The notes beneath the pieces are model-generated. The model was not told the origin of the DNA. It was given only the letters and a program-made list of their open reading frames with translations, and made no database searches. DNA of 63,995 bases, filler included, from Gonapodya sp. JEL0774 (lineage: Eukaryota): NCBI GenBank assembly GCA_027604505.1. It is 7 parts of 7 records of this genome, joined end to end, with 100 filler letters (N's around TTAATTAATTAA, not from the genome) between each part and the next. Parts side by side here need not be neighbours in the genome. Positions count along the whole stretch, not along the records: positions 46,259 to 55,279 come from JADIIX010000425.1; 6 more parts are not named here. One strand, written 5' to 3'. Shown here piece by piece: positions 12,627 to 59,434 of the stretch (position 1 is the first letter of the stretch; the number at the start of each line of letters is the position of its first letter). Both the position numbers and the translations under genes were made by a program.

Positions 12627-13159
12627 TGTGGAGAGTTGGAGCGACGTTGAACAAGGGGGGATGTCTGCGATTCGCTTTCAACGGCGGCCGGTCTCGGGCC
12701 GCACCAAATGCTTGACGGCAAGTACGTTCGTCGCTCTGACCATAAATTAAACTTGTGGAACGCTTCTGGTCTTGTTATCGTGGCACTTGGAATCAAGTCG
12801 ATCTTCTCGCGGATCATGAGAATGTACAGATACCACGCCGTTGTAGCCTTTGCACTCTCTAAAATTCCAAAAGACTCGTTCTATTTACATGGACATTGCA
12901 TCTGTGTGTTCTTCAAGGTCGGTGGGATCCGTCTGCATGTGTCCACAGCATTCCCTGTCCCACAAAACCCTTCTTTGCTTCGTTTCAGCAGACGATAAGC
13001 CCCAAAAACTCTCTGAAAACGGTCTGTGCTGGGACCAATGAGCAGATTGGAGACAGGAGCCGGTCGTGGGCAGGTGTCTGAGTGGAATGGAAGTGAAAGT
13101 GATGTCAGACTCGCAAGATCGTTCGCGTTCGGGGAGGTGAGTTTCGGTTCCAGTCTGAT

Positions 13160-16100: not shown

Positions 16101-17548
16101 CCGGTGTAGCAGACGCTGCAACCGCCTCCCTTCGTCGATTTGTCGTATCCGACGCTCTCCTTCAGCCCACTGGATCGGTGCCTCCCGCCGCACGGGTCGT
16201 CGAAGGGTTGGTAAGAGTGTGTGGTGTGGGCGTACTGGATGTCGTGGGGGAGGCAGTGGAGGCGGTCGTAGACGCTGTCGATAGCTTTGGAAGGCGAGGG
16301 TATGCCAAGGGGCTTTCAGCGGGCGTAGGCGTTGCGGGGATGCTGGGAGTGATTGGTGGGGTGGTTGAGGCGGTTGTTGCAGACGAACCATTTGAAACTC
16401 CAGATCACCATGTCAGTGATTATACGGAGAACACGGAGAACGGCACATCGCCTTTGAATGGATCGGAATGGCTCACCGGGTGCTCTCCACAAATGAAAAG
16501 ACTGTGGATAGAGTTTGGGCCTATCCTGGACCTCCAAGCTGGCGGAACTGGTGGAAACAGTGCGCGGCTCGTGGAACTTGATGACAAGGACAGGGAATTG
16601 TGGAATCTGACGGACCCGGACGAAGTGAGAGATTTTTTCTTGCGAAGGGCCGACGAGAAGGAACGCGCCGCAGCCGAAAAGTTGGATCAGCACGCATCGT
16701 CATCCGCGGAAGAACGGCCGCCATCGCCCATCACTACTCCACCGACTCCCGCCACGTCCCTCTTACTACTCGTGCTTCGCCTGACATCCCATCTTTTGTC
16801 GCATCCCCTTCCGTCTGTGCGTGCCGCTGCTCTGCGTCTCGTGCGGTTCTCCCTCCCTCCCCTCCTCCAATCCACTGAACTCCTACCACAAGTTCATAAA
16901 CTCTGGCCGGGGGTAGTATCTCGGCTGGATGACGCAGAACGGTATGTTGCTGTAGAAGCAGATGCGGTGGTTGGGGTTATGGCCAAAGTAGGCGGGGACT
17001 TTTTGGCGAGGAGAGTAGGCGAAGTGGTCAGCAAATACGCAAAACTTCTCTCAGGGCTGAGAAAAGTCGCGTCTGGGGAGATTGGGTCTGCCAGAGCGAC
17101 GGATCCAGCGTACAAGTTCTCCACGCACGGAAGGCTTTTGCTCGGTGCACTAGGCACCTGCTGTGAAGTGGTGCGACAAGTGCCATTGGCTTGGGCGGAT
17201 TTACGGTCGTTGGAGCGTGCGACTGCGCCCTTCTTGGACCACAGGCGATGGAGCACAGATGTTGTCGATGCAGCAGAGAGGGTCTGGAGAACATTGGCGT
17301 ACAGAGACCCTGACGGGACTTGGCTCTCAATGTGGAGCATTCGCGGTGGAGGGAACTGGAAGATGGGTGCTACGGACTGGAACGGTGCAGAAGGGCCGAC
17401 CGTGCCAGCGTGGTTTGTAGAACGATGGCGAGACAGACCCGGTGAAACTACTGATGGAAGTGCAGACAGTATCGGCAAGATCTTGGAATGGGTGAGAGAT
17501 GCGAGAAGAACGGGTGCCTCCAAGGTGAAGGAGGTGCGAGTTTACTAA
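13160..17548 (+). CDS. TTI1: TEL2-interacting protein 1 homolog (TTT complex, HEAT repeats); start approximate; introns at about 13634-13755 and 14152-14227
   Basis: N-terminal QLKPLC..LADFVLVPILHLL; C-terminal HLLSHP..VRAAALRL..LLPQVHKLWPGVVSRL..GGDFLARRV..DPDGTWL; 1096-aa terminal ORF. Confidence 0.8.
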
Positions 17549-18506: not shown

Positions 18507-18606
18507 NNNNNNNNNNNNNNNNNNNNNNNNNNNNNNNNNNNNNNNNNNNNTTAATTAATTAANNNNNNNNNNNNNNNNNNNNNNNNNNNNNNNNNNNNNN
18601 NNNNNN
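18507..18606. other. Artificial scaffold linker
   Basis: N-TTAATTAATTAA-N. Confidence 0.97.
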
Positions 18607-27741: not shown

Positions 27742-27841
27742 NNNNNNNNNNNNNNNNNNNNNNNNNNNNNNNNNNNNNNNNNNNNTTAATTAATTAANNN
27801 NNNNNNNNNNNNNNNNNNNNNNNNNNNNNNNNNNNNNNNNN
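27742..27841. other. Artificial scaffold linker
   Basis: N-TTAATTAATTAA-N. Confidence 0.97.
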
Positions 27842-29751
27842 CAATCCCTGCTGAAGTGACCCCCCTTGTTGCAGTTGAAGCATCGATCGTTGTTTGCATT
27901 GGCCCACTGACCCAACGTATTTCCTTGACCCCATTGTTGCGGTGGTGGAGGGGGTCCGTACGGTGGGTAGGGCGGGTGGGGATACGGGTACCACTGCTGA
28001 TACGGTGGGTAAGGCGGAGCAAATCCTTGCGGACCTGCTGGGGGATACGGCGGTGGATATGGGGCGTACGGCTGCTGTTGCAGGTAGGGGTTCGGTCCGC
28101 TCTCCGGGCGCCTCATGGGGCCACCTCCACCTCGTCCGCGGCCACCCCGGCTGTTTCCATTTCCACGACCACCACCATGGTGACCTCTTGCCGCCTGCCT
28201 CGCTTCCGGCTCGGTTGGCGGGGCCGCTGCGGGGCGCTTCATTCCGTCCGCCAACTCCATCTCCGTAAACTCCGGTGCCGGGCGCTTCTGCGGCAGGTCG
28301 GTGCGCGCCACTCCCACCCAACGACATCCTGCCGGTAAAGGCGGGAACCTTGATGTTGCATATGCCTGCAAGTCAGACACACGCTCCCGGAGCTCCTGTA
28401 TCTGGAGCTTGTCTCCTGGCTTCACCACCACGTTCAGCATCTGACGTGCCTCAGGGCCAGCGGCCTTAAGGAACATTGTGACGTACTTTTCATTGAGTTG
28501 CTCGCTCGTCATTCTGCTACGGGGCGTTGTGTACGCCTGCAACCGCCGCACGTCCGCCATGTGCTGCTCCAACGTCGCAGACGCTGTGTCTGCGGTGCAC
28601 AACCCGTCCACACACACCACTGCCCAGTTTGCATTGTCCACAACTTGCTGCGCCTCCTCCCGTAGAGCGTCTGTCACTACCATGGTGTAGTACCACCCGA
28701 AGAAACTGTCCAGATCATCAACTGGTGGGTAGTTGAGGACCCTGGCGTCCCAGAGACGGTGGGTCGGGGGCAGCGTGCCCGGTTGTTTTGTGTTGCCCCA
28801 CGCTTTGTTGAGCGACTCCGTGAGCGCGAGTGCGCACCAGTTCACTGCGTCCGGTCCGTCTGGCACACCAGCCTGCTCCACACTACGACGCAAGCGCTCC
28901 ACCCAATCATGTGGGTCCTCCCCAACTCGTCTCTTCATTTCGCTACTCGGCGGTTTGTACGTTCGCTTCTGGAACGTCGGGAGGTCGGCGATGGTCGACC
29001 TCGGTTTCGGAACCACTGCAGGTGGTTGGGGCTTCTTCTCGTTTGCCAGCAGTGTGCTCGCTTTTTCGTTCGCCGTAAATCTCACTTCATTCGTACGGGG
29101 ACCCTTGTACCCCGCCGCCATTATCCTCGTGTCGAGATCGAACTGCAACTCACGCAACTCCTTCTCCTCCAACTGGTGTGTCAACTCCATCTCCTCCCGC
29201 CTTAGAGCCACGCGCTCCCTCATGTCCGCGACACGCGCGCGCAGCGACTCCGTTGTCTCGTCCACAGATGGTTTGCTCGCTGCAACGGGGTAGAGGCTCG
29301 CCGCACCCTGAGTCCCGGGGAGTTTGCGTGGCCGAAGGGGAGGCGTACTGGACGACGAAGAGGGAGGGGCGTTGTTGGGGAGCTTTCGTGCTTTCGGAGT
29401 TGCGGACGGTTTGTTTGTCGGCGAAGGGAGATGATCGGAAGCTGGTGGAGGACGATTTTGGGGTGTCGGGGTCCCATCGCCTGCTGCACTTGCCGGCTCC
29501 TTCGGGGTGATCGGACTGAAGCCCGGTGGTTTCGGACTTTCTTCGGTGTCGACGGGGCCTTTGCCTTTGACAGAGACAGCCGGGGAGTCGGCGACTGGGG
29601 CGCCAGAACCTTCGCCAGAAGGGGGATCGTCGATGCCAGGCCCTTTGGGGGCATCCTCGTCAAGCTCATCGAAGTCGACGACGTTGAATGGTTCAATGTT
29701 TGCCATTGAAGATGATAGAGGGAAGAGCGGATTCGATCGGTATTCGGACAC
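27842..29751 (-). CDS. gag: LTR-retrotransposon Gag-like protein, truncated at the scaffold edge just after the zinc knuckle
   Basis: Intronless ORF of >630 codons with coiled coil, capsid-like GEDPHDWVERL segment, RGG-rich stretch and CFNCNKGGHFSRD(C) CCHC knuckle. Confidence 0.8.
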
Positions 29752-29785
29752 AGGCCACAGCGGAGTGACAGGATGCGAGATGCTG

Positions 29786-29950
29786 CCGGCCGTCCCCCCA
29801 ATTGTGATGTCCCGTACTGGACCGGACTGGTAGATGTAGGACAGGGATCTGATGTATGTCTAGATCCTTTAATACATGTATGACTACCTACAGGCATCCC
29901 AGGAGCCCAGTACACCACAGTTCATCATAGACCATTTCAACTCTCTCCAC
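29786..29950 (-). mobile_element. 3' end of a 5' LTR (...ACATCACA, ending at 29803) followed by a primer-binding site TGGGGGGACGGCCGG (29800-29786); distal LTR boundary not fixed
   Basis: Minus strand reads ...attaaa...gggacatcaca-at-tggggggacggccgg, ~50 nt upstream of the gag ORF. Confidence 0.6.
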
Positions 29951-31387: not shown

Positions 31388-34300
31388 TTGGTTGGATCTT
31401 GTGCTCGAAGATTTTTTGGTTTTGACGAACAGGGTAATGACCATACAGTTGGCAAAACAATCGATCCTCCCTCTTCAAACTCAATTGTCAGCAAGGAGGG
31501 ATCAATCGTAATGGATGAGGCACTACTTAACGGAATCTCGTTGAAGGGACAAGGAAGGCTGATTGACCGTACAAAGTACGACAATGCACCGGTACGTCAG
31601 GACATGCGTTTACTCATTTTTTATGGATGGATGGCAAAATTTTCTTGTTGGCTCTGATGTCAACACCCAGGGTGTGCGGGACGAGACGGGCTTCAGTGCC
31701 GTGACTGGAATGGTCCTGGGAGCGCACGCAGTGGACAAACACCGGGATGAGGTAGAAGAACACGTGTGCGTAGCAAAAGTCTATTTGCCGTCCGACGAAA
31801 ATCATCTTGAGGTGAGATTGCATTTCTTTAGCGTGACCTTCTGAGGCTGAGTGGACAAACCCCATCACCTCCTAGAAATTGGAAAGTGCTCCATTTGAAC
31901 AGGAAGAACTCACTATTCTCAAAGAAATGAGTTTGATTACGGTGAATTGACAACCACTCTACTTCTGGTTTTGATATTTAATCCATTCGACGGTAATATA
32001 TGCACTCACAGGTTGTCACTGAGAGCTCAGGCGCATTGATCACTGACTTTTACCGAGAAAATCGTACATCTGCCTCAAATATCTGTGACTGGAACATGGA
32101 CAAAACGGATACTATAAGCATTGCGACAACTGAAGACTCACAGTTTCTGATAGGTTTATCCAGGCAGGATGCTAATATTGATCACAAATATGAAATGCGA
32201 GACAAACTTCCAGCCGTAGGTTTTACAACCTATTTGCCAATAACCATTTCTGATGAAGAGTTTCCGAACGACAAGGCTTATCACCGCTATTGTACAATCT
32301 GCCAAGATTCAACGTGCATGGCAAGTGAGGTGAACATTGGAACTTGCACATCCGGAGAATTCAGCCAGGGAATGCACTCCGTGACTACAAGGGACTTGAA
32401 GACGAATGCCGCAAATGTGAGTGAATGGATTGAGATTGCCAGGAGAGCCACATCTGAACGTGATTCCATATGCATCAAGGACTCCGATATCGCATACAAC
32501 ATCAGAAAGAGTGAGGTACACCTGAGTTGTTGGTGCTTGCTACCGGTCGGACAGACATGTAGGGTTGATTGTTCACATCTTTATAGGTGCCGATGGAAGA
32601 CACGGAAAGTTTGTACAAGGCAGAACATCGTATTCTGATGGGAGATGCCATTTTAGAGAAGGTTGGTGTTTGTTTGCTCGCTTACTCCAGCCAACCACCA
32701 TGCATAAATTTTGCGAATCTGATGCCAAAGATGACCACAATCACCGTGGACCATGAACTGGGCACGTCTAGTTGCTCAAGTAGTAGCAGGGACAATACTG
32801 GGTCTGAGGAGGGCTTATTGTATATTTCGGAGCGCACAGTTCTCGCTGACAAAGACATTGAGGTGTCCACGCGCGTTATCTCCGACAGTAATTGTGAGGG
32901 AACTCAAGAAACTCTTAAGGTAAGTCTTGCCTCAGATTGACTACCCTCTAATTTGAATGCAAGTGGTTTTATTATGAAGTCACAGGATCTTTCGATACAA
33001 AATTCGGGGTATTCAGTTATGATCGGCATGAACTCAGAGTACGCATATGTTCTAAATAACCCTTCTATTTTAGCCACAAGTACTCTCAATCAGACGCAGA
33101 GAATTGCTAAACAAATTATGGAAGCAAATGAATCAGGCAATCAGATAACTGCAGGCTTTGATTGCTATGATTCTTTCTTCGAGGAATTCAAGACATCGTA
33201 TAGTACTATTCAAGAACTATTCCCTCAATACAAAGGCTTCATACCCATGAAGGGTGGCGGGCAAAGCTTGTACTTATGGAAGGCATCAGACAGGCGGACT
33301 GGGAAATTGGTAGTGATCAAGAATGCCACCGACTCTGTGATTAATCCTTTCCCAAACATTCGTGAAGCACGGTGGAGTACTATTTTTAATGGACTGGATG
33401 GCTGTGCTACAATCGTCAAGGTTGTCAGAACTCTGGATTCGTTGTTCATTGTCAGTTCCTACACTGGCGAATTCAATGCAATCACCTTTGCCCAGCACCT
33501 TGGAAGACAGGCACGTAAATCTCCCCAAAGAATGGCAGAACAATTAATGAAGCTTGAGAGGCTCATGTATGACGCTATTGTCATTCTTCATCGAATCCAT
33601 GATCTTGGTGCAATCGTGTGCAATGTCAAGCCACAAAATATGGTGTTGGATGAGCGCAGAAACTTGACAATAATAGACTTTGGGATGATGATGCAGATGC
33701 GGCACAATGGCACAGTACATTATCACGGTGGATCACCTTCATACGCCGCTCCTGAGTGCAATACCGAGGACCCGATTGTAACACAAAAGGCTGATGTTTA
33801 CTCTCTTGGAATGACCTTCAGCCAGATCTTTTACAGTTTCTACCACCCTGATCAAGGCATCAGTCGAGCAGCAATTGTTACCAGAGATGGAAATTTGTTT
33901 TGCTGAACCAAGCTTCCATCATCAATGCAAGCACTTCTCCTTGAGCTGCTACAAGTTGATCCACGTCAGCACCCAAATATGAGTGATATTCTCTTGTCTG
34001 GTTGGGCACAAGAGGCTTGCCTCAAATATGGCTGGCCAGTCCCTGTGTTCTCTCAACATTCAATACTAGAAACCGCAGATACCTATATCGAGAATGAAGT
34101 GCGGAACTTTATGACACGCACACTCTGCTATACAGAGAATTCACTATCAATATCTCCTTATTCTTCTGGTGAACTTCAATTGACAATGATTGAGGGAGTA
34201 AATTTCTCTGGCAGTCATTTGAAGAAAACGTTACGAACAAGGCTACTGGAAGCTTTCGGATTCTCGGACTGGCTCAGACCAGTCAAACCTCGCTCCCAAA

Positions 34301-36956: not shown

Positions 36957-37056
36957 NNNNNNNNNNNNNNNNNNNNNNNNNNNNNNNNNNNNNNNNNNNN
37001 TTAATTAATTAANNNNNNNNNNNNNNNNNNNNNNNNNNNNNNNNNNNNNNNNNNNN
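36957..37056. other. Artificial scaffold linker
   Basis: N-TTAATTAATTAA-N. Confidence 0.97.
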
Positions 37057-40324: not shown

Positions 40325-43300
40325 GTGTTGAACAAAGAAGCGGTGGACAAAGCACTGTCCCAGGCGAACTCCAAACCATCACCGTCAAAACCCATGCCAC
40401 CAAAACGGCACAACCGCCAACTCCCAAAGAATACAGCTAACCGTGAGGTCAGCGATGTGGCTACTGCAAACCGAAGAAGTGAAGCAGTGCAAGCTGTTCA
40501 TCGGTCGGCGCATGACATGACGAAAGTGAGCAAAACATTAGACGGCCCGTTCGCACTTGAGCCTGGAGCATTTCGTGTATATCTAGGACGCAAATCAATC
40601 CCGTTTGGCAACAGCCTCCCAGTCGGGCAGTGGGGCCAACTCCAAGAAGGTGAGCAACACGTTGTAGTAAGGAGGGAGCTTCCTTTCATGGAGAGCTTCA
40701 ATTCTGCTGATTTCACAGGGCGCTACTGAAACAGAAGTACAGAGCAGCAAACTGCCTCGCTCGGATCTGCCTTGGCGGAACACCACCCGCGCATCGGCAA
40801 TCGTGGGACCCACCACATTGGTCGAAACGCCCAACACTTCTGGCAGTTGTTCGGTACGGAAACGGCAGACTTTTCTGAGATATAGAGACTCGCTGACTTG
40901 TGGAGAGTTTCTTTCCTACTCACAGGTTTTACTTGCTGGCGGGGAGAGCTCAAGATCTGATGTGGTTGGCAGTACCGAAGTGGGGCACGCGAATACCCCA
41001 AGCAGGCCAGGCAGCGTCAGTAAAAATGAGCCACTTGATTCTAATGAACGAGCAACAGTTGCGACAGGGATTGCCACCTCGGCGGCAAAGTCGTCTGGTC
41101 CATCTCCAGATTCCAATCTCGGCAGGGCAACTCTGCACCCCCATGTAGCGACACATGCCCACGTCTCTATCGCCGACGGGAACACTACCGGGGCGCCAAG
41201 ATTGGCTGAAGAGCCCATGTCTCGGCGAAGCCGTCGAGTTGGAAACCAGGGGATCGAATTCCCGCTCAGCGAAGATATCAACAAGCTCACTCGGCGTGTT
41301 CCTAGGCGTCCACGTGACCCCGTCACCAGTGCTCATGGTGATGCACATGCTACCCATGAGGCGCTCCAACTGAGTCCTGATGTAAACCGAGCTCCACAGA
41401 CAGGCGAAAGTGCGCATCAGGGCGATCCCCGTGCTGGTCAAAGCACCTGTGGAACTAGTACTGTTGCTGAACTACCCCCAAACAGTGAGTACTGATTCGC
41501 TGAAGCTCCGTCATATTCTGCTATCTGGGCAAAGTTTGTTGATATCTACCCCTCAATGTCTAGGTGCTGCCTGCCATCGTATGACTGAAGCAAGCGCCCA
41601 TTATATTGGTTAGTGTGATGCTATTTTCGTCTGACAAAGTTGTCGGAACATGGACCTTCTAACTTGATGGCGCGCTCAGCATCCACCTCAGCATCCACAC
41701 ATGATTTGCCGAAATTCGTCAGAGCGACAGCGAATGTCGAAATTGGCGTCTCTTCTGCGCCAATACATTTGAAATCAAGCAGCAAAGCCATTGCAATTGA
41801 TCGTGAGTGTGATCTGGAATGATATAAGCAAGCTAGTCAAACCGTTTGCTCACAAGTAAGCATCGATCCACTGGAAGGTTCCTCAACTACAAGCGTGAAG
41901 TCGTCAACCTCAAGCGGTGCAACGACGCCCTTGATATCAATAAACGCTTCCAAGAAGAAAACACCCATGGCCGGGAAGTCGACCTCAGGATCGGATTCGC
42001 CACCTGCAGCAGATCACCGTAAAGCGGCCGTGACAGCGACCACACATTCACAACAAGTACACTCTACAATATTCAAAGTTGAAGGACCTTCACCCGAACC
42101 CCAAGCAAAATGTCAAACGATTCACGTGTTTGAAAACAACCATGAAACGTGGGTGTGAATCTTTGCATTGTGGAATCGAGCCCCGTGACTTCACAAAGCA
42201 TAGTATTAACGCTTCCACCCTCCCTTTAGCCCTGCGATTCCTCAACCTGGTCATTGCTCCATTTCAGTTCGTCGCACAACTGCGAAAATTGCAACAGTCA
42301 CCCCAGATCTGAACGACGAAATATCAAACAACACCGAAGTAGGGTTTGCAAGAGGGTCAGAGGGTGGTGAGCATGCGAACGATGGAAACCACAAAACCCC
42401 CGAATCTCGAGCCGCATCTCGAGTGTCCGTTGGCCGAGGACTTGGAGCAGCGAACATTGGATTCATCAAGAACAACTTTCGAGTCATCCGTCACCTTGGA
42501 ACCGGCGGATCAGGCACCGTGGTGGCAGCTGAGCATGTGATCAGCGGTATGACCGTCGAAGAAGTCGCCTTGAAGATTGTGGGAGTCGGAGATGATAGAG
42601 AGAGCTTGACAAAAGTCATCAAAGAGATCAGTGTTCTGCGGCGAATGAAGTGAGTTCCTGAATTTAATTCCGTCATTTATAACCATTTGGCACAATCGTT
42701 TCACTATGGTTGATTGTCACTTCCCTTGCACTAAGCCATCCCAATGTGCTAACGTACAAAATCTCATGGCTTGAGGATGAATATAGCATTGGAGATCGTG
42801 GTCAGTGCTCCACCTTGTTAACATGGAAATTTCTATATTCTGTTTTGTATTCATAGCTTCATTTTCAGGTGCGCGGACAAGAGTTGCGGTAATTGGTCAA
42901 CAACTTGCAAATGGAGGATCGCTTGAAAACTACATATTTCAAGGTGTAGTTGAAGGCCTTCAGCGTCGGCAGGCTTTCCAAGCGCAACGGCAACCCGAAT
43001 ACAGAGATCCGCGTGTGCATGGCGGCGGCGTTTATGTGGACCTCACTTCAGGTCAACGAACGCGTATTTTCTCGGCGAGAGAAATTGTACGTTGCCTCAC
43101 ACTCATGGCAGCTGCAATCTGTTATGTCCACAGTCGAGGAATTGTTCACCTGGATCTGAAACCAGGAAACTTCCTGCTCCATTTTCAGCAAGGGCCACCA
43201 AAAGATTTGGCTGCTGAGTGGAGTGATCAAGCATCCACTCCGATGGTCTTGCTTGCAGACTTTGGTGAAGCGGAGACCCTTCCGAAGACCTTGACCAACA

Positions 43301-43767
43301 AACCTGGCACTCTCGAATACATGCCACCCGAGCTACTTTCTGGAAGCAAAATTGCAGCTGACCCCAGTATGGATATGTGGAGTTTGGGCATTGACGCGTA
43401 TCAAGTTTCCTACAATGGGAACCTTCCGTGGCAGAACTCTGGGAGCGAGGACCCCGATGCCTTAAGAACCGAGATTGCTTCTTTGAAAGTTGATAGGTGA
43501 GCAACCTAAAAGTGCTTTGGCAGGTTCTCGTTTGTTGTTAATTTTGCACATCACGTATTTTATTGTTGTTTTTTCTTCGGACTTTCTCCCAGTATCACGT
43601 TTCCACATGACGCTGGTTCTGAACCCCGCGTACCATGGCAAGTTAAACACGTGATTACTCGCCTTCTCTCACTTGACCCTGCCAAGCGACCGTCATCGAG
43701 GGAGGTCCTGACCGAGCTCAAGTCGTTGTGTACGTTGTTCAACATGTCTGCATCTGGCTCATCGTAA
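40325..43767 (+). CDS. IKS1-like Ser/Thr protein kinase (kinase domain ~42450-43767) preceded by long low-complexity exons; 5' structure uncertain
   Basis: GFIKNNFRVIRHLGTGGSGTVVAAEHVISG..ALKIVGVGDD..KVIKEISVL, HPNVLTYKISWLED, HLDLKPGN, LADFGEA, GTLEYMPPE, DMWSLG, LDPAKRPS. The VGDD, WLED and DFGE pattern resembles fungal IKS1. Confidence 0.8.
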
Positions 43768-46158: not shown

Positions 46159-46258
46159 NNNNNNNNNNNNNNNNNNNNNNNNNNNNNNNNNNNNNNNNNN
46201 NNTTAATTAATTAANNNNNNNNNNNNNNNNNNNNNNNNNNNNNNNNNNNNNNNNNNNN
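46159..46258. other. Artificial scaffold linker
   Basis: N-TTAATTAATTAA-N. Confidence 0.97.
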
Positions 46259-46455
46259 GAGTGTTTTTTGTGCAGAATGGTGGAGCGGTGAAGGCGGGCA
46301 GGGTGGGAGTCTGACGAGCGATCGTCGGACGAGTCGGAGGACGATATAAGGATGGGATCGGGAATGGAAGTCGGTGGAGCGAAGGAGGAGGAGAGGGCGG
46401 GTTGCAGTTGGAGTGCAGGAGAGGGAGGGGCGGGAGGTCTGTCGAAATGGGACAT
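46259..46455 (-). CDS. 5' start of an unidentified Pro/Ser-rich protein, truncated by scaffold edge
   Basis: ATG at 46455, MSHFDRPPAPPSP..., open to the linker. Confidence 0.35.
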
Positions 46456-49004
46456 GAAGTTGGAGTTGGATGTAGCGTGGGTATGACGTGTATAAAGAAT
46501 ATAGAGAGTGTTGGGGTGTTCAGATTGGACTGAATTGGAGTTGAGATGAATCGGGTGAGTTCAACGTCAGTTCAACATGAGATTGCGAGTGGATTCACGA
46601 CCGCATACACAGCTGAAACTGCGTACGAGTGTGGAGGACTTGGAATCGGACTCTCCGTCCACCCAACATAAACAGTCACCACTTGTTCGTCTCCGAAACC
46701 GATTCCCAGCGTCTCCCGCTTTCGCCGCTGGCACGCAAAATTTTAATGCCCTCACTTGACGACATTCATCGGCCCATTCTCGGACATGCTGCTTCGGACG
46801 CTGACGTTACCCGCCGTCCCAATCAACGTGATCTCCACCCGCACAGGCGCCCTCCGTCTCCGTCGCCAGACACTCTGCCCATGTTCCCCCCTGCTCACCT
46901 TCCCGGGTGTCCTGTCCGTTATGCTCGACCCCTGTGTCTGCTTCTATACTCCGCAAAACAGGGTTGACGTGATGGGTTTCTGTCGGGGTTTGAGCATCCA
47001 AGATCCACAGATCCATTGATCCACCGCCCTCCAAGGCCTCCTACCCTGCTGCCCTGCACACCCTGAACACACGAATCGGACACTTTTTCATTTCTTTTCC
47101 TGCGTTTCGAGTGCTCAAACTGTCTCTGTTCTACTTAATCTGGTAGTTTCTGCCTTTCGATGGAGCCGATCAGCGCCAGAACGAGTTCTGCATTCTCATC
47201 TCCTCCACATACGGAGAACGGAAAAGAGATCTCGAATCTCATTCAGCGTCCCATTACCCCACGTCTTTATTTTCTGCATTCCTGCCCCCGTTTGCTCTTC
47301 TTGTCGCTCTCCGTTCATTCCGCCCCATCCCACACCCCTTAGACCCCTGGGAACCGACCAAGCTCCCCTTGGGACAAACCTAAACAGCATTTTGCATGAA
47401 CCATCATGATTCAACAGAGTCGCACCAACTCCGCAAGTTTTCACGATATCATCACACCGAAAGTTCGATTTTATGCGCATTCTTTCTCGTTCGTGTTTGA
47501 GAGAATTTGAAATGGTCCGATCGCTTGTGCCAGATAGAGCACCCTGTGTGTCTCTTCCCATCGGATCAAAACGGAGCACCAAAACCTGAGCGCTCAGTTG
47601 GGATGGAATCGAGTCCGGAATATTCCGGTTTGGTTCCAAAGAGTTTTCTCCTGTGCCGCCCATTCCGCTCTTCTCTTCCTCCAGCCTTTCCACAACATCC
47701 TATGCTTTGTACGAACACTCTTTCTCCCGCTCAAACAGAGTAATCAACCTGCCATAACAGGAGATTACGTGGAGATGCTATACCATACCGTCTTTACTAG
47801 ACGTACCGCTACTCCTGCTTCGATTGGTGCCGTATGGAAGAGTTGTAGTCGTACAACAACTGCATGTAGTCATAGAAGGTACTCAGCGTAATCCAATACA
47901 TTGCCGTGACCGCAACTTGGTGCGCGCTGAACGATGAACGAGAAGAAGATGTGCATTTGGCTTATTCACATCGTTCCCGAGGGCAAATGATGTACTTCAC
48001 GATCGGTCCGGCAAAATGGCCATCCCCATATTGGTCGGCACTCTGGAACAAATTCCACCGTAAAGTTTAATCATGTAGTAAAGTACTCGGTGTAAAAACT
48101 ATCCCGACTGCCACAGCGTGCAGTTGTCGTAATAATATGAGGACTCAGCTGTTCACCTTGCCTTGAGAGAATATACTGTCACAACTGTCATACGGAAGGA
48201 AACGTAAACGCAAGCACACACGAAGCTTGAATGAATCTTGTGTGGGACTTGAGTACTGTTGAAGATGTCCATTCTCTTTTGTCCACCTGAAAGGACACCG
48301 TGACATGGCATGTGTGGCCAACCACATTTGACCCAGCAACCCAGTCCCCTATATCCAATTCCAATTCCCACTCCATCAACCCTCGCCCGCTTTCCTTCTC
48401 TCCTCCCCATTGTATCCCTCGTCGACTCCTTGTCATGATTGCTTCCTCCTCGTTCCTGCGACTCGCTCATTCTCCTGAACTTTGTTTCCATCCAAACAAA
48501 ACCGAGCGCGAGTAATGAGCTTTCGCGGGCTTAGGGGCAGTTGCGACGTCAATATATTATCTTCAATCACTCAGTCGCTGTGCACTACTGTGGTCACTAC
48601 TGCTGCACTCTTGCCCTACGCTCCAAGTCCAATTGCTCACTACATAACTCCACAACCAGGAACGCTAGAGAGATCATTCAAGTACCAAAACGCATCTACT
48701 CTTCAAGACAGTTACAATGCGCCTATCGGCGTCTTTAGATCACAGTCTGTTGTTGAGCTATTCAACATCCAAACTCCACCGTCCCCCCTCCCCTACATCC
48801 TTTTTTTACCCTGCCCCAAGAACATTTTGTTTTGACATATTTTCGCTTTGCCGCTTACGTGTTTCTTTTCTGGACAGCCCTGTTATTTCATGTTTCCTTA
48901 CATATCTGTACGTACCCTCTAGACCCAACACGAACTTCTCCCATTTATCTTTTGCTCTCAATGGTGTATGAGGATGTATTGATAATTCTACATGTATATT
49001 TACT

Positions 49005-52000
49005 TCACTCATCCTTTGCCTGTACATTGACGTAGTATTTTTCAATGAAGCGTCGAGTTCGAGGGGTTAGGCAGGAAGACCTACGTGCTACTCTCTTCCC
49101 CTTGCGGTCCGATGCCCCCTCTTCTATATTGTCCTCAGTGTTGCCCTTGTCTCGTAAACGCTTTGCAGAGCGAGTCTCGATGACACCAGTCTTGAGTGGG
49201 GTTGCCGATTGACGAGGTGTGGGTGGTCTCAACTTGAGGCGTGGAGGGTGAATGTTCTCTTTACCTGACCACACATCTATAGACTTCAAGGTAGTGTAGT
49301 CAATGTACCTAAATGACAAAGTTTACAAGCAGTTCGTAGGATGAAAGAGTTGAAAGCTTACTTAGCAGCCAGAGACCCCTTCTCTTCAACAAACGTTTGA
49401 TGCAGCGACATAAGGCGTGTCAAAGCAGATCCAGCTACATCAGTGAGGGATTTAATCCCGATGTACTTGCAATTGGTCAACAGGGCAGCAACTCCAAATC
49501 CTGCTGCTCCACAACCGAGGTCAATGATGAGCTCTTCCTTTTTGGTAAGCTGGTTGAGGACGTAGGCAGCGGTGGTGATGGGCACTTGCATGTCAGGGTC
49601 GCCCTATAAAATGAAGATGGGAGTAAGTTCTATGATGACTGACAAAACACAAAACTCACCGCCAATCTCAAAGAATCATCCATTCCTTTGGAGGGAGGGA
49701 GCTGACCCACAAATGGTGCCTCCACTTTAAAGCTAGTTGCGCTTTGCAGAAAGCATTGCGCAACCACGAAGTAATGGAGTTTCTTCTTCTTGTTATCCAC
49801 CCATGCCGCAATGTCATCCGCAAAGAAGATTTTGCGGTTCTCGTACTCCAACTCGGAGAGGAAAACCTTCTGTGCCTCCGATAACGTGATCCACTTGGAA
49901 GTGTGCTGGAAGGGTACCAACCATATCTCAGTATTGTATAGGCAGTTTGTAAACATGAGACTCACCAGAACAATCCAACCTGTGCCAACTGCAAGTTTTC
50001 CCGCAAGGTCCAAGGCTGGCTTCACCTCGGACCCCACTCGGTCCAGATCAACCAGAACCATGGAGGCACTATTGAGGTGGGCGTGTAGAGGTTCGACGTT
50101 GTCACCAGCCGAATGTATTGGTGCACGAAGAATGACGGTCGGTGCGGGCTTGACCAATTCAAAAGGCATACAGAGTGGTGCCCTTGAAACCCAATTTGTG
50201 TCAAGAAATCAACGGTGAGAAGGCAGCATATGATAAATGACTTGCCTCGAGCTTTTGTCATCGTCTTTGTCGACCTTATCTCCGGATAGTTTTGACTTCG
50301 ATACGGAGGAGGCGTTTTTCTTGCGGGATTTGGTGGGCCCATCCATGTCCATATCCACACTGGCATCATCGTTGTCATCATCGGATTTCACCACCTGTAT
50401 GCCATCGTCGCCCTCTCGTCATCTACAATTTCTGGAGCACCTCCAAGCGCCATCTCATCATGAACTGTTGTTTCCTTGGGTTGGACACAAATGTGAGGGC
50501 AGGCTGGAGGGGAGACATCTTCGTTGAGGTCTGTGATCTCCTGCGCAGGAGGTTCCTTTGATGGTGATGGATTTTTTGCTGCTTCTATTGCGGCTCTGAG
50601 TTGATCAGGATTGTCGTCATACATCCCTATGAAGTGAAAAGTGTACGTTAGGTTTAAGTAGGAAAACTTAATGAAAGGTACGCACCATTCTCAATCTCCC
50701 CGAAAAGCCGGTCGAATTGCACTTGTGGAAGGCGTTCCGCGAGGACCAACTTGGTGTTCTCCAACGTCTCACGAAGGGCTTTCCTGCGCGTAAAGATTTC
50801 CAACCATGCTCTGGCTTGGGCCTCCGTCACACGGGAAGGTTGGCTGAGGAGGTAGTCTAGGTATTTGTGCTGGCAGCAAACAACTTACTGGTGTGAACTC
50901 TCATAAACAATTGCATTATTCACGTACCTGATCTTCCTCAGTCTTCAGCTCCCTTGTGGCAAAATTGGCGTGCATATTAATGAAACTGAGGAGACCAGTA
51001 TGGCGATGGTCGTAGATGCTGTTTTTGACCTAGTCGGATGATGATCTAGAATCAGTACGTGAGCGGAACAAATCATCAATTGCATAACGCACTGAATCAA
51101 AGAAATTCACGATCACCATGAGATTTCGAAGTGTGTTGACTTCTGTCCATTTCTCTCCTACAGCTCCTGTGTTTGGGAGGAGCTTTGCGATTGTGACAGG
51201 CTGAACGCTGTCCCGTTTGGTCCCAGGATTCCTTGCAATGTATGCATCGATCTTGTCTGACACATACTTCACCTGGTCAAACACATCCATAGCAATAGAG
51301 TGGCCATCTAAGTTGTTTGAGAGGAAGGCAAGCTTGCAAAGGACATCTGCTGGAGTGTCCCACTAAGGTAGAGATGTGAAGGTAACGTTTGTCGCATATG
51401 TGAGGTGAACAGTACACATACCCAGAGGGCTATAATCCATTGGTTGTGGCACTTTGAAGTGTCACCATCCTCTTCGTTTATCTTGACGGCCCCTTCCTGG
51501 CTGCATGTGCAAAACTTGACATTGACATCGAAACAAATCGCAAAATGTGGCAAGTACATACCGATGGAAACCATTAACAAGATCCGTTAGCTCGGTCTTT
51601 GCTTTCCGGAATAGCTCGCCAAGATTGGCGAATGCAGTACGCCCATAGTTCTTTTTCCACTCTGCCAGAAGAGGACGATTCTTCTCGGGACCATTGGTCC
51701 TCATGCGGCGCCTGATCCACGGTTGTATGTTAATCGTTCGTTCCATATAATTGCAAACACTAATACTCACACCAACTCTTTGTAAACAGGGTGCTTCTTC
51801 GACATCACGCGGATGTTTTTGAACTGCGATGTGTCAATCAACCGTGTTGGGATTTGGATACCTCAGTGAGCAGGCTCGGACCACGTCTCAATGTCATAGA
51901 AAGCGACTCGGCTACAAACAAAAACATTAGAATATATTCTGTTTTTATGTAACGATCCCTCACGATTCGATTCGACTACTTCCATGTCGGGGGTTTCACC

Positions 52001-52084
52001 GGGGTCTGTAACGTCTTCTGGTCCTCGACGCTTCTGGCGCATAGGTCCGTCTTGCGCAGGTTTGCGTTTAGGTGGCATTGGCAT
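49005..52084 (-). CDS. Multi-exon gene (probably slightly decayed): NLS-like start, ParB/Sulfiredoxin-like domain, helical region, acidic linker, beta-class N4C/N6A DNA methyltransferase-like domain, basic tail
   Basis: Manual splicing. Start MPMPPKRKP. ParB-like: IPTRLIDTSQFKNIR..KELVRRMRTNG..RPLLAEW..DLVNGFHRQEGA..LAFLSNNLD. MTase-like: IHSAGDNVEPL..NSASMVLVDLDR..LAVGTGWIVL and DPDMQVPITTAAYVLNQLTKKEELIIDLGCGAAGFGVAALLTNCKYIGIK..ALTRL. In-frame TGA at 51863-51865. Confidence 0.72.
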
Positions 52085-52255
52085 TTCTGCAGGGTGTAGA
52101 CTAGTTAGATTTTGGAACAAGACCCACGTAACTCATTCAATGCCACATCCTTCCTCCTTAGCGCTTCAGCAAACATGCTATTGCATGTTCTGTGCACTCC
52201 CTTGAGGATGTGACTTCATCTGCCGGACAAATTGATGCAAGATAACGAGAGACAA

Positions 52256-52842
52256 GAGTAGTCAAGTCGTCCGGCGGACGACTTCACGCTTGTGCAAGAA
52301 AGAGAGCGAGCGAGGTGTAATTTCGTCCGCTGGACGACTTAAAATTAGATAAGGAAAGTCGAGAGTAGTCAAGTTGTCCGTCAGACGACTTTTTCCACGA
52401 GGGGAGAAAGTCGTCCGCCAGACAACCTGACGCGTGAACCACAAAATCACCGAACCATGAGTAATTTGGTCCGCCGGACAACTTCAAACAAGAAAAAGAG
52501 AGTCTAGAGTAGTCAAGTCGTCCGTCAGACGACTCTTTCCACGAGGGGAGGAAGTCATCCGCCGGACGACCTGATGAGAGAACCACAAAATCACCAAACC
52601 ATGAGTAATTTCGTCCGCCGGACGACTTCAAACAAGAAAAAGAGAGTCGAGAGTAGTCAAGTTGTCTGTCGGACGACTTTTTCCATGAGGGGAGAAAGTC
52701 GTCCGCCAGACGACCTGATGCGAGAACCACAAAATCACCGAACCAGGAATAATTTTGTCCACCGGACGACTTCAAACAAGAAAAACAGAGTCAAGAGTAG
52801 TCAAGTCGTCTGTCGGACAACTTTTTCCACGAGTGGAGAAAG
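52256..52842. repeat. Higher-order tandem repeat with a 144-bp unit (~3.5 copies plus a partial), each unit carrying three AAGTCGTCC-NNN-GGACGACTT-like palindromes
   Basis: gagtagtcaagt anchors at about 52363, 52507, 52651 and 52795; palindrome spacing 37/56/51 bp. Confidence 0.92.
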
Positions 52843-53287
52843 TAAAAGTCGTCCACCGGACGACTTGATGCTTCACAGAGAGTTCCGCAGTTATGGTAGA
52901 AAGTTGTCCAGCAGACGACTTGGCACTTCCCTGAGAGTATCAGAAAACACGCGAGAAAATTGTCCGGTGGACGACTTGGCGCTTGACTGAGAGTATTATC
53001 AGTGATTGTAGAAAATTGTTTGGCAGACGACTTGATACTTGACATACAGTTCCGCACCGACAGTAGAAAATCGTCCGGCGGATGACTTGGCGCTTGACAT
53101 ACAGTTCCGTTGTGACAAGAGAAAATCGTCCAGCAGACGACTTGATTCTTGACGGAGACAAAGAGAAGCAGCAAGAGAAAATTGTCTGGCAGACGACTTG
53201 ATGCTTGACGCAACGACGATAGAAAATCGTCCAGCAGACGACTTGATGCATGACTGAGAGAGTCTGAGAGCGTAGGGCAGACGACTT
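52843..53287. repeat. Repeat-spacer array: 8 copies of a ~34-bp repeat (AGAAAATCGTCCRGCRGACGACTTGRYRCTTGAC) with 21-22-nt variable spacers (one of 11 nt)
   Basis: Repeat starts at about 52843, 52898, 52954, 53010, 53065, 53120, 53176 and 53221; half copy near 53276. Confidence 0.9.
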
Positions 53288-53550
53288 CTACTGTGCATGA
53301 GGCGTTTCCCTGTTCCCATCGTCCTGGCCTGACAGCCCTGCCTGATATCCTCATCAGTGCTCACCTTATCTTCGCAATCCCTGTCCCTTGTTATGTTTAT
53401 CGAGTTCTTTTCTCTTAAGACAATTGTCCAAAGTAGGCACTTTCAGTGTGGCCCTGTTGTGTAGGGTGTCATTTAGGATGCCATTTTTGTTTTCACCATT
53501 CGGTGGCTTTGGTGAATCTTGCAGCAGGGTTCAATCACCTCAACAACAAA

Positions 53551-55279
53551 ATGGGAGATCCCATCACTCTTGTGAACGAATTTCAACCAAACAAGACTCA
53601 CTTCTTCCACAAAACATCTTTCATCGTCCCTGATTTGCAGGAGCTGTTTAGACTTCAGGGAAACCTGTTGGACATCTACCTCTTACCAAAATCAGCACCC
53701 AATCAAACCATTTTGACGAGGAATGGTCGATTTGAACTCATCGCAGACAAAGAATACATTGTTGGTGGAGATCCAACGGAATCTTTGTTTAAGAACATAC
53801 TTGAAACAGTCACCTCGAACCTCATCGTGGTATTTCCCCCATCCGAGGATGTCACGCGTACTACGCCTGTCGCCAGCAACAAAAATGCTGAACACGTGTA
53901 AGACAATGAGACGGAAGATGCAATCGATGACTATCTTAATAAACATTCCGAGATTGAACTCTATCTATTGAATAACTGTATCCCCAAAGCACTACCGGTT
54001 TATTGCAAAGGGAATGTGAACAAATCACATCGAAAGGATTGGAAAAGAATGGTGAGTGATTCTTTGAAGCCGCGGTGTGTTTATCCCTAAAAGAGTCTGC
54101 ATTGCAGGTGAGGTCTTACTCAATCATAAACGACCGGCTGCATTGTCCGTAAGGACGGAACACCAATGCTTCTCTTTACATCAGCGGACAAAATCAACAG
54201 TGCAATTCATCATGTACACACGTCATCTGCGGTTGGTGGTCACTCTTCTTTGTGGCGCTTGTGGAGGAAACTCGTGATGAACTATTATGCCCGCGGACTC
54301 TTCTGGATCCTCGAAAAGACAATACTGACATGTGCGGTATGTATCCTGCAACAACCGCTACCATCTAGGGCGCCTTTGGTACCCATCATCACCTCCCAAC
54401 CAAATGAGTTGGTGAGTGACAACCCAGTAGCAGATGAGTTCTGCTGTGTTGTAATTCATTTTCATACCTTGCTTCAAGTGGGTGATAGACTACACAAAAT
54501 TTGGGCGCTTTTGGATTCTACATGGAGTTGACCACCTATCTAAAAAGGGATTCGCTAATGCTTTCCTCACAAAGGTACGTTTATTCTGCCATAAGAACTT
54601 TCAAATGGAGAAAGTTCTAACCTGATATGAAGCAATCAAAGAACGTAGTTGACTCAATCATGGAGTGGAGCAAGGAAGGCTGTATGCCCGATTCAACACT
54701 CTCTGATAACGGTGGCGAACTTGTTTCGAAGGCGTTCGAGAAACTCCACCAGCTCCATGGTATCAAGATCCGGCATGGCAGCCCCTACAAGCCTTCGACA
54801 CAAGGTGCCATCGAGAATCGCAATCGCTTTTTCAAGAGTCGTATTCGCAAAGTGTTGAAGGAGCTCAACATTCAAGAATCTACTTTGAGCCTTGAGCGTC
54901 TTCAAGACATCTTGCCAACTGTCAACAACACAATTGATCACGAGGTACATGGAACAACTAGTGCCGTGCCATATGAATTATTTTATGCAAAGACAGATCG
55001 GAACTTTTATGCTGTTCCAGGACAGGGTTAGTGTTCTCAGCATCCAAAAGTGAATGTAATCTCACATAACAAAATGGATATTGTCAGATCCACCTCCCGA
55101 TGTAGCGTACGACCCTGCCACCCATTCGAAAATGATGCTCAATGCTAAAAAGCACATGCAAAAAGTCGCCACTCGAGATCTTGCAAGGTAAGCACGCAAA
55201 ATTTAATTGCACTCTGTTGATCTAAATCTTCAAACCCCTTGCAACCAGGTCATTGGCAAATTTATCGCTATCTCCACCT
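53551..55279 (+). mobile_element. Intron-containing retroviral-type (Ginger/GIN/Gypsy-like) DDE integrase, decayed (stop at 53899-53901, frameshift near 54150), truncated by scaffold end
   Basis: HHCC: HHVHT..GGHSS..NYYARGL..TCAVC; PLVPIITSQPNEL; IDYT..VDHLSK; LSDNGGEL; HGSPYKPSTQGAIENRNR; HGTTSAVPYELFY; GT-AG introns at about 54052, 54412, 54574 and 55027. Confidence 0.88.
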
Positions 55280-55379
55280 NNNNNNNNNNNNNNNNNNNNN
55301 NNNNNNNNNNNNNNNNNNNNNNNTTAATTAATTAANNNNNNNNNNNNNNNNNNNNNNNNNNNNNNNNNNNNNNNNNNNN
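55280..55379. other. Artificial scaffold linker
   Basis: N-TTAATTAATTAA-N. Confidence 0.97.
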
Positions 55380-57481: not shown

Positions 57482-58849
57482 TCATCCACAATTGACGCGA
57501 GCGACGTTATGAACGCCGTCTACAATTTTCGAGGGTCGAGCGCAATCCCAGTCTCTCAAACTTCTCGGCCAACTTTCCTTGTGGGACTCCGCGAGGAGCG
57601 CCGGGCGCAATTGTTTACTGTAGCTGACGATTCTGAGTTCAACAACACAGGTTGGCCGCACGACACTCAGTAACGTGCCAAGAAACATTCCAAATCGCAT
57701 CACTCCGTCACTGACGCCGTACTCGTCGAATGTTGCGGTGACCACGAGATGATCCAGTGCTGGAAAGAGCACCACGAGCTGGCGAATCACGTGTAAAGTA
57801 TCCTTTGGTGTTGTGGCGCTTGGTATGCTGCCGTTCCAAATTTCTACGAATAGTTTTCTGACGGTTTTCAAAGCTGGAGTCGATGAGCGCCATGTACTAG
57901 GGTCCTCTGAGGCGCACACCAAGGCAAATACGCCCAAGTCCAGAGTACCAAACTCTCGCAAACCCGCAAAGATAGGTTTGGGAAGGAGAAGAGAAGGTTG
58001 CTCGTTCTCTACCGGCGTGACTACTTGAGAGGGGACAATGAGGGTACCGACGCTGTTTCTCTGCAGCCGATCAAAAGAGTCCTCCACAGGTCCTCCATCG
58101 AATCCGAATACGGTCTCGCAAATCGCTGGATAGAGTCCTTCTCCTTCCAATGTTACCACGGATGGGAATCTTTTGAGCACTGTATGGAGCATCGTGTTCG
58201 GGGACACGGACCCATGGATCATGACCCTCTCGGGTGCGCTCACGCAGACAACAGAATCCATCGTTACATCTGAGGGAAGACTACAGAAAAGTTCCCAGTC
58301 GGCAGTGTTGTGACCGATTCGAAATTGGGGGACCTTGTGTGTTCGAACGAAGTCCACGGTGTTGAGAAAGGAGGTGAAATCGTCTTCTGATGTACCGCAG
58401 TGAGATGGAGAGACCTTGCTGATGATGATTGATTGCGATAAACGTGATTTGAGAGGCATAGTTCGAGTGCGATGACTGAAGGAGTCAAAGACAGCTTTGT
58501 GGAGGTGTTGCTGCAATCCCTCACTGATGATGGAGGAAGCTGAGAGCTGCAGACACACCACTGCTGAAAGTGAAGACCACATCAACAGACCAGATGGGCG
58601 ACGCGTCATCCGAAACTCCCTCTCGAGACTGATTTCGACAGAGTACGGTCGATCATCATCCGCAGCGCAACCCCGCACGTCCAACTCCACTTGACATGTC
58701 ATCCCGACCGCATTTCCTGGACAACCCGTGATCGCTCCGAAGCATGTGTTGTTCAGCGTCTTGGAAAGGCGAGGGATCTTGGAATAGAATGTTTTCGGGG
58801 AAAGGAGGCGGAGGATGCGATGGAGGATCTCGATGGGGAGTGTTTCCAT
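57482..58849 (-). CDS. F-box protein (N-terminal F-box, possible degenerate LRR C-terminus)
   Basis: METLPIEILHRILRLLSPKTFYSKIPRLSKTL F-box signature; later FPSVVTLE and FPALDHLVV LRR-like motifs; intronless 455 aa. Confidence 0.8.
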   Translation of the reverse strand: METLPIEILHRILRLLSPKTFYSKIPRLSKTLNNTCFGAITGCPGNAVGMTCQVELDVRGCAADDDRPYSVEISLEREFRMTRRPSGLLMWSSLSAVVCLQLSASSIISEGLQQHLHKAVFDSFSHRTRTMPLKSRLSQSIIISKVSPSHCGTSEDDFTSFLNTVDFVRTHKVPQFRIGHNTADWELFCSLPSDVTMDSVVCVSAPERVMIHGSVSPNTMLHTVLKRFPSVVTLEGEGLYPAICETVFGFDGGPVEDSFDRLQRNSVGTLIVPSQVVTPVENEQPSLLLPKPIFAGLREFGTLDLGVFALVCASEDPSTWRSSTPALKTVRKLFVEIWNGSIPSATTPKDTLHVIRQLVVLFPALDHLVVTATFDEYGVSDGVMRFGMFLGTLLSVVRPTCVVELRIVSYSKQLRPALLAESHKESWPRSLRDWDCARPSKIVDGVHNVARVNCG

Positions 58850-59434
58850 CTCAAGGTGAACCGCGAACGGGAAATTTGCGACGACTGAGTGGGGAATACG
58901 GGCTCTTTGAGTTCAGAATGAGAACTGGTCGCGTGTTAACCCACAATACAGACAGAATCGATTGATGGTGTGCCAGCGATAATATGTTGGTGCAGATGAG
59001 TGTGAGGGTCATGATGATATATTTGAACACCACCAGCTCGCCCACAAGTGACAGTTCCCCAGATTGAAGACAATAACACCACACCATGTAAGCCAGCAAT
59101 CTATCAGCATCCAGGTCTGACATTCCTGCAACGCGAACAATGAGTGCCGTGTACATACAAAAATAACCAAGTTCAGTTGTTCCCGTTCCCGTTCCCGGTA
59201 ATTAGAAGGTAATCTCGCAATTACCATCCGGCTTCCCCTCATCATTCCATCCTTTGGACACTTCGCAGGATTTACATAAGTGGGGTTCGGTACTTCAGGC
59301 TATATATGTACCACTGTATTATGTAGTGATCATCACCACAACTCACCAACATTTGAACAGCGTGCTCGACCCATCAAATCCAGCGATCCGCGCGATTCTT
59401 AGCAGTGCAAGATTCAAGATTTGAGATTCGAGCG

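Follow-up and report, generated by a model that had tools for sequence, protein, structure and literature searches.

A decayed ParB-like and methylase-like fusion gene beside a palindrome array and a Ginger-like integrase gene in the fungus Gonapodya

A spliced fusion gene and its decay

Gonapodya is an early-diverging (monoblepharid) fungus, and the DNA analysed here (the window) is a 63,995-nt stretch joined from seven contigs of Gonapodya sp. JEL0774; all coordinates are positions along this whole stretch. On one of the contigs (46259–55279) lies an intron-rich gene whose product joins a ParB-like region to a beta-class methyltransferase-like region (that is, one with the permuted motif order of N6_N4 enzymes), with an array of 22 palindromes upstream and a divergently oriented, Ginger-like integrase gene beyond the array (Table 1).

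The preliminary description had read 49005–52084 as a single gene of many small exons, and this holds: the gene has 12 exons and 11 introns of 52–63 nt each (10 GT-AG and one GC-AG), its exons are richer in G+C than its introns (0.51 versus 0.38), and all of the named motifs are found on splicing, including LSNNL, MQVP and a VNGFHR motif that is interrupted by intron 3. Two proteins listed at NCBI as Gonapodya sp. came up when one exon-rich frame served as the query; the annotated protein P0001 is the translation of this gene (identical in blocks of 350 and 374 aa), and all 11 junction peptides are present in annotated P0001, P0002 or P0003 (gene predictions, not transcripts). This is a genuine intron-rich gene. 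It has three paralogues (P0002–P0004), making at least four copies overall: P0002 (621 aa, partial, 88% identity), P0003 (813 aa, full length, 87% identity, encoded on a 181,586-bp contig) and the shortened P0004. That the ParB-like and methyltransferase-like exons belong to one gene, as also proposed before, agrees with the full-length annotation of P0003, in which they are joined (again an annotation rather than a transcript).

Because it carries two frameshifts and one in-frame stop, the window copy is a pseudogene, a state that the preliminary description did not mention; the P0001 annotation spans the exon 8 frameshift by means of a 35-nt gap (50396–50362). This copy cannot produce the full protein, and it has been methylated and has decayed. 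Among three aligned copies, 56 residues are private to the window copy, of which 31 are conservative changes and 21 are reachable by one C-to-T or G-to-A change; 17 of these 21 transition-type changes are located at CpG, and about 17% of the C/G sites of the gene now stand in CpG. Such CpG-biased decay is the pattern that deamination of host 5-methylcytosine (5mC) would give. P0003 has many radical changes, with 9 of its 29 private changes conservative. The N of NGFHR, earlier taken as a hallmark, is not supported, as P0003 has DGFHR and the N/D difference is itself a CpG-transition-type change. As the window copy is dead, the value of the locus lies in the family to which it belongs.

Table 1. 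Positions of the fusion gene, its motifs and lesions, and the neighbouring array and integrase gene
Feature	Positions	Strand	Remarks
Contig between N spacers	46259–55279		9021 bp; ends within integrase gene
ParB-like + beta-class methyltransferase-like gene	49005–52084	−	12 exons; pseudogene copy
Exons 1–6	52084–51964, 51911–51771, 51711–51562, 51500–51422, 51362–51093, 51029–50928	−
Exons 7–12	50869–50686, 50626–50246, 50182–49966, 49905–49660, 49603–49362, 49308–49005	−
Lesion 1	51892–51897, near 51894	−	frame break (1 nt) in exon 2 relative to P0003
Lesion 2	51863–51865	−	in-frame TGA; Arg in P0003
Lesion 3	50411–50423	−	frameshift in exon 8
Likely ParB/Srx-fold domain (exons 2–5)	51309–51853	−	motif, ESM Atlas neighbours
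IPTRLID	51853–51833	−
All-helical middle domain	50580–51308	−	best-conserved region, 94% to P0002
Acidic/basic low-complexity linker	50246–50579	−	83% to P0002
Catalytic half of permuted methyltransferase fold (exons 9–10)	49660–50182	−	GDNVEPL, then MVLV-DLDR at motif IV position
GDNVEPL	50106–50086	−
DLDR	50038–50049	−	GAT CTG GAC CGA where (D/S)PPY expected; same in P0001, P0002, P0003
SAM-binding half (exon 11)	49362–49603	−	MQVP, IIDLGCGAAGFG, YIGIK
DLGCG	49522–49508	−
IGIK	49462–49451	−
Palindrome array	52213–53287		22 copies of 21-bp palindrome AAGTCGTCC-nnn-GGACGACTT (9+3+9)
H2C2 + rve (DDE) integrase gene	53551–55279	+	Ginger-like, intron-containing; cut by contig end

The domains of the encoded protein

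The C-terminal domain has the permuted (beta-class) amino-methyltransferase fold, on tests that are singly weak and jointly agree. Its motifs follow the N6_N4_Mtase order read previously, with GDNVEPL, the motif IV position, MQVP and then the S-adenosylmethionine (SAM)-binding half, whose motif I loop (DLGCGAAGFG) lies near the C-terminus, and profile and fold searches agree with this order. The expected match to PF01555 was found for the SAM half (E 0.016, profile positions 164–211 of 221), although its best score of 15.6 bits falls below the Pfam gathering score of 26.7 bits. PHROG profiles matched P0002 as a methyltransferase (E 2.2e-6) and a DNA methyltransferase (E 2.2e-4), the NCBIfam model PRK13699 (DNA methyltransferase) matched at E 4.8e-4, and the best sequence match in the PDB was the DpnA-type M1.HpyAVI (5hek, E 0.31). 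The single-sequence AlphaFold model is poor overall (mean predicted local distance difference test (pLDDT) score of 39.5), yet shows the expected strand–helix order in the catalytic half, and Foldseek ranked M1.HpyAVI–SAM (5hfj) first for it (E 0.029, 226 columns). When model residues 400–516 (that is, the half without the SAM exon) were used in a fold search, SAM-methyltransferases stood in the top 11 of 48,161 chains (best match: Z 7.3, rmsd 3.3, 102 aligned), and a further fold search agreed. An hhalign comparison of the whole domain covered 206 columns (prob 97.9), driven mainly by the SAM exon, and ESM Atlas neighbours of the region (0.91–0.95) included one PF01555 cluster. Weighing against this assignment, the catalytic half gets marginal support when sequence is the sole evidence (its score was equalled by 3 of 100 shuffles), and a Z of 7 may reflect merely a common fold arrangement.

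Where (D/S)PPY is expected at motif IV, the protein reads DLDR, as had been noted, and the comparison of copies extends this to the family: DLDR is common to all three copies that span motif IV. When the domain profile is aligned with that of 36 prokaryote-type enzymes, DLDR falls under DPPY (prob 97.9), and a matrix of motifs III–IV (23 residues ending at motif IV) found its best placement at the DLDR Asp in all three proteins. Two points tell against this reading, namely that 42 of 100 shuffles of P0002 score as high on this matrix, and that DLDR is known only from three close paralogues (85–93%) of one organism. Its codons differ from those for DPPY or DLPY by several transversions and are not a C-to-T product, which, together with its presence in 3/3 copies, argues that DLDR is older than the divergence of the copies. 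The residue after IGI is another matter. The preliminary description had taken the K there as a trait of the protein, whereas E is found in P0002 and in the distant relative P0005, with K in the window copy and P0003 (P0008 has G, then SE); given IGIE in a paralogue and in a distant relative, IGIK is probably decay, by two parallel G-to-A hits rather than one shared change.

As the change of SPPY to APPA abolishes the activity of the bdelloid enzyme N4CMT (PMC8885841; here and below, sources are cited for the part of their text available to us), the Gonapodya protein, having lost Pro and the aromatic residue, is predicted to lack canonical methyltransferase activity: the fold is beta-class, and motif IV is not that of an active beta-class enzyme. 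An intact protein might nevertheless transfer methyl groups by way of its non-canonical motif IV, marking the DNA of its own element with N4-methylcytosine (4mC) or N6-methyladenine (6mA), as has been proposed for algal proteins, or acting on another substrate. Motif I and the acidic residue of motif II are kept in P0002 and the distant P0005, the Asp at the strand end is kept in DLDR, natural DLPY/DIPY variants occur among the fetched phage enzymes, and for the Ectocarpus transposon protein described below, 4mC or 6mA is the predicted product (PMC12477816). We consider such activity improbable, however, as DR has taken the places of both Pro and the aromatic residue, the N4CMT mutant is dead, the HPTQKP-like motif is DPDMQVP here, and the CpG deamination in the palindrome array (see below) is typical of host 5mC.

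Upstream of the methylase fold lie a linker, a helical middle domain, which would be the DNA-binding or dimerization part, and the region that we think is probably a ParB domain, an assignment leaning on motif and context. In this region a Box I-like ELVRRMRTNG is followed by an insert of approximately 25 residues, a Box II GxxR and a Box III-like LAFLSNNL. The GxxR follows a hydrophobic strand (LVNGFHR in the window, LVDGFHR in P0003), as in the definition of the Box II phosphate motif of the ParB/Srx fold (PMC12704722), and ESM Atlas neighbours of the region are phage ParB/sulfiredoxin clusters (0.90–0.93). Together with context, the GxxR motif and these language-model neighbours make the ParB assignment likely. 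The hallmark motifs described before are thus present, whereas profile and fold tests gave no confirmation. Pfam, in which a PF02195 match had been anticipated, returned no match to the region at E up to 10, and PHROGs and NCBIfam returned no ParB match; the Atlas ParB/Srx rows share just 101–126 of 256 features. A profile of 93 phage VDGFHR segments (selected on that motif) matched Box II alone and nothing after masking (49/60 and 59/60 shuffles as high), and against this phage profile the flanks of Box II were equalled by 78–184 of 200 shuffles. The two AlphaFold models have low confidence (mean pLDDT 39.5 and 33.6), with the ParB-like region below 50, and the second, built with 8 family rows, was the worse and gave no meaningful Foldseek match. 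All of this weighs against a ParB fold. Boxes I and III look plausible on inspection and come in the expected order when aligned globally, but in comparison with one phage subfamily they do not rise above shuffles, and no ParB/Srx chains appeared in the fold searches, which barely probed that region.

Several observations touch this region. The phage sequences included a large family of approximately 270-aa ParB-like proteins (L068–L182) that carry VDGFHR and, near the N-terminus, the motif IDxGTQxR. A Pfam TNT match on P0003 (E 0.036, 15 bits versus a cut-off of 27) was rejected as chance; P0001 and P0002 lack it. For P0003 residues 40–370 (window 51911–50580) the Atlas also gives a DUF3723 cluster from Ascomycota (0.89). 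DUF3723 is cargo of Starship elements and could represent a further ParB-like accessory protein in mobile elements of fungi; a literature search found no paper combining DUF3723 and ParB.

When the window copy is compared with P0002, 35 of 407 sites differ in the folded parts and 35 of 204 in the linker and tail (Fisher p 0.003), the domains being better conserved than the linker and tail; for the methyltransferase domain alone the count is 25/235 (p 0.05 against linker and tail). A search of a 1.84-billion-sequence library gave 6 matches, none algal, homologue searches otherwise gave Gonapodya's own paralogues only, and a search with the methyltransferase domain among shorter proteins gave no match. 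Four proteins of 55–95 aa (P0005–P0008), from four other contigs, each match a single exon (5 or 11) at 39–57% identity, and none spans motif IV. The SAM exon (exon 11) is thereby retained at 44–57% in distant organisms, as is the Box III-like exon (exon 5) among these exon-sized relatives. Because the two SAM-exon proteins stop where exon 11 stops, we suggest that P0005–P0008 are spliced relatives in other eukaryotes that share an intron position.

No eukaryotic relative emerged when contigs from metagenomes, viruses and prokaryotes were scanned. With the paralogue alignment, 0 of 297 metagenome candidates were retained; with the SAM exon, 42 of 459 metagenome candidates (24–41% identity) and 25 of 329 viral-contig candidates were, and those examined by translation or profile proved to be DPPY/SPPY enzymes of the ordinary prokaryote type; their motif counts provide no control because the candidate filter demanded a DPPY/SPPY-type motif. 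A GTDB scan with exon 5 gave 0 of 108, and a phage tblastn search a single DNA methylase at E 0.6. Two further candidates were rejected, one (L183) as a chance match of 8 residues inside a long phage protein and the other (L197) as an unrelated, ordinary methyltransferase.

These comparisons bear on whether the methyltransferase domain, or the entire gene, is an unselected relic riding on an element. The three lesions of the window copy, the many radical changes of P0003, the shortening of P0004 and a methyltransferase-versus-linker contrast of merely p 0.05 would all suit a relic. We nonetheless find a relic very unlikely, as 11 introns have been maintained, the private changes of the window copy are more than half conservative, and the SAM exon persists in distant organisms with the same end point.

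The palindrome array and the integrase gene

The array between the two divergent (head-to-head) genes consists of 22 palindromes when up to 6 mismatches are allowed and 17 when up to 3 are; at the stricter threshold the mean chance expectation is 0.04, and all 17 lie inside the array. The palindromes are spaced 37–56 bp apart within tandem units of 144 bp and 55 bp, lie 130–1200 bp upstream of the ParB–methyltransferase gene, and span the upstream region common to this gene and the integrase gene. Transitions affect 14 of 88 CpG positions and 1 of 66 other C/G positions, a concentration that points to deamination typical of host 5mC. We propose that the array is parS-like, its palindromes being candidate binding sites. 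In viral contigs the palindrome gave 13 isolated matches and no arrays.

The integrase gene, modelled with 5 introns, matches PF17921 (E 2.3e-4) and PF00665 (E 2.2e-6), both below gathering score, and is itself damaged: its frame breaks near 54150, and at 53899–53901 it has an in-frame TAA, unless an unusual short intron lies there. It fits Ginger transposons, with a Maverick-type element as the alternative. Ginger DNA transposons likewise have an H2C2 + DDE, Gypsy-like integrase with introns (PMC2836005), and no reverse transcriptase or gag is seen upstream of the integrase here. Ginger elements end in terminal inverted repeats of 40–270 bp with TGT ends and a 4-bp target-site duplication, whereas the present element is known from its internal part, its ends being out of sight because the contig stops inside the integrase gene; the available Ginger passages (PMC2836005) mention no ParB–methyltransferase accessory genes. 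A viral-contig scan found no relative.

The adjoining divergent H2C2 + rve integrase bears out the earlier suggestion that the gene is transposon-borne, and we conclude that it is very probably a transposon accessory gene of the ParB–methylase type. Tempering this, the linkage of gene, array and integrase is known from this single locus and not from P0002–P0004. The N-terminal region could instead have no ParB fold, or a host gene could merely lie beside a Ginger- or Maverick-type integrase, as the negative profile and fold tests, the unseen element ends and the single locus would allow. Of the explanations weighed here we find this the least probable: the GxxR motif stands in the right setting and has fitting Atlas neighbours, at least four copies exist with a common decay pattern, and the layout is that of algal elements.

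In place of the anti-silencing role proposed below, a ParB-like protein of an element might serve transposition itself (by holding or bridging the element, or by retaining its excised form) or repress the two promoters and thereby limit copy number. The array does span the shared upstream region of both genes, its many palindromes suit cooperative loading, and ParB relatives such as KorB are described as repressors. We regard these roles as unlikely, as the array is internal and not at any visible element end, and no partition ATPase or other gene is found in the remainder of the contig. At 46259–48900, specifically, no third gene was detected (0 of 13 frames with a Pfam match, and an empty codon scan). 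The left end of the contig (46259–47050) contains coding-like low-complexity stretches without a Pfam match, which may be the end of a host gene or a further part of the element.

Precedents and a proposed model

Published systems make the novelty lower than the preliminary description implied. In the brown alga Ectocarpus, Sola1-1_Ec32 has a gene for a 1104-aa ParB-like + N4/N6 DNA methyltransferase on the strand opposite that of its transposase; green and red algae are cited as having proteins of a similar kind (PMC12477816). The likeness, which is by description, lies in the two domains joined in one eukaryotic protein opposite a transposase; the carriers differ, with a Sola transposase and a protein predicted to methylate in the alga, and an rve integrase and a lost motif IV in the fungus. 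Motif IV of the Ectocarpus protein is not visible in the available text, and 5 supplements gave no ParB or methylase match. Red-algal Plavaka elements encode PAG2 (PF01555 + SET) and PAG3 (ParB-like + 2OG oxygenase) (bioRxiv 2025.02.11.637652). There too a ParB-like gene lies beside tandem inverted-repeat arrays with a PF01555-type methylase in the same element, but ParB and methylase are encoded apart, each joined to a different partner, and the transposase is EnSpm-type.

Fusions of ParB with N6_N4_Mtase (PF02195 + PF01555) are enriched in phages (PMC12704722), and ParB–terminase loci occur in phages and prophages (PMC4738411). The phage and prophage fusions, with the same domain pair in the same order, are the likely ancestor; they are intronless, whereas the Gonapodya gene is split by 11 introns, lacks (D/S)PPY and encodes a linker and a long middle domain of helices. 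A second family of chlorophyte-type Dam proteins, from chlorophytes and chytrids, joins a helix-turn-helix of ParB type to a DpnM-like methyltransferase (PMC4738411). This is again a ParB-related part fused to an amino-methyltransferase in early-diverging fungi, but its methyltransferase belongs to group 2 and is not circularly permuted, unlike the present domain with its permuted beta order and M1.HpyAVI as its closest PDB entry. Bdelloid N4CMT (PMC8885841) is likewise a beta-class N6_N4 enzyme of prokaryote origin in a eukaryote, but an active (SPPY), chromodomain-fused host silencing enzyme, whereas the Gonapodya gene is element-borne and ParB-like and has lost the motif. The ParB-CTPase fold's commonest eukaryotic member is sulfiredoxin, according to a recent survey (PMC12704722).

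Our searches found in print neither a fungal beta-class case nor this integrase-type carrier nor a methylase domain retained without its catalytic motif. The literature search gave no fungal, permuted, motif-less ParB fusion on an integrase-type element (reviews and supplements may hold a fungal mention) and no paper joining Gonapodya, methyltransferase, 6mA and transposons, and PMC10853773 has nothing on the ParB–methyltransferase family in the part available.

We propose that an intact product of this family binds the palindromes of its own element by means of its probable ParB domain and carries a methylase fold that would be catalytically dead, a chain of steps that, taken whole, we hold with even confidence. 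The step of which we are most certain is that a phage-type fusion of ParB and N6_N4 methylase was captured by a eukaryotic DNA transposon and gained introns. Second in certainty, the helical middle domain, as a dimer, would recognize the 9+3+9 palindrome; using a nucleoside triphosphate (NTP; CTP or ATP), the ParB-like domain could load at the array and spread from it over the shared promoter region. Third, the methylase fold would have lost the Pro-Tyr that holds and activates a flipped base while keeping the SAM motif, and may act as a non-catalytic domain that binds DNA, cofactor or a partner. Least certain is the purpose, which may be to keep the promoters of the element open against host CpG methylation, comparable to VANC proteins, which are anti-silencers at tandem repeats of VANDAL transposons (PMC10398659), and to Shigella VirB, a CTP-binding member of the ParB family that counters silencing by H-NS (PMC10245682). 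The likeness to these two is in the working model alone: no homology to VANC is claimed, and VirB is bacterial. That the protein binds, that it uses a nucleotide, that its activity is lost and that it counters silencing are all predictions.

More broadly, a phage-derived parS/ParB self-recognition module may be carried by DNA transposons of eukaryotes, across several superfamilies and in several kingdoms, with the methylase half here a pseudo-enzyme and an NTP-driven sliding clamp shielding promoters from CpG methylation; we put this generalization forward tentatively and think it rather doubtful. If true, a bacterial-type clamp would act on eukaryotic chromatin as a sequence-specific anti-silencer. 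The ParB–methylase proteins of algal transposons are so far predictions only, whereas this locus places a candidate protein beside a sharply defined candidate site (the 21-bp palindrome in 22 copies), and ParB-based self-recognition and protection of transposons therefore becomes directly testable. The family-wide motif loss suggests that binding, not methylation, may be selected, and with this locus the ParB–methyltransferase class would come to include fungi and transposons of the integrase type.

The remainder of the window is made up of unrelated contigs of approximately 9 kb, and the contig described here has no blastn or tblastx match to the rest of the 63,995 nt. N spacers occupy 1973–2071, 9209–9308, 18507–18606, 27742–27841, 36957–37056, 46159–46258 and 55280–55379, and long 'repeats' located at them are spacer artefacts. 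The other contigs hold a host gene for TTI1 (TELO2-interacting protein 1; 13103–17548, +), protein kinase domains (32941–33906, +; 42787–43500, +), a piece of an ABC-2 transporter (22227–23027, +), a 689-aa open reading frame (ORF) with a weak, possibly gag-like zinc knuckle (27790–29859, −), a 476-aa ORF with a weak F-box (57482–58912, −) and, on a separate contig at 5774–6302, three to four copies of a direct repeat of approximately 152 bp.

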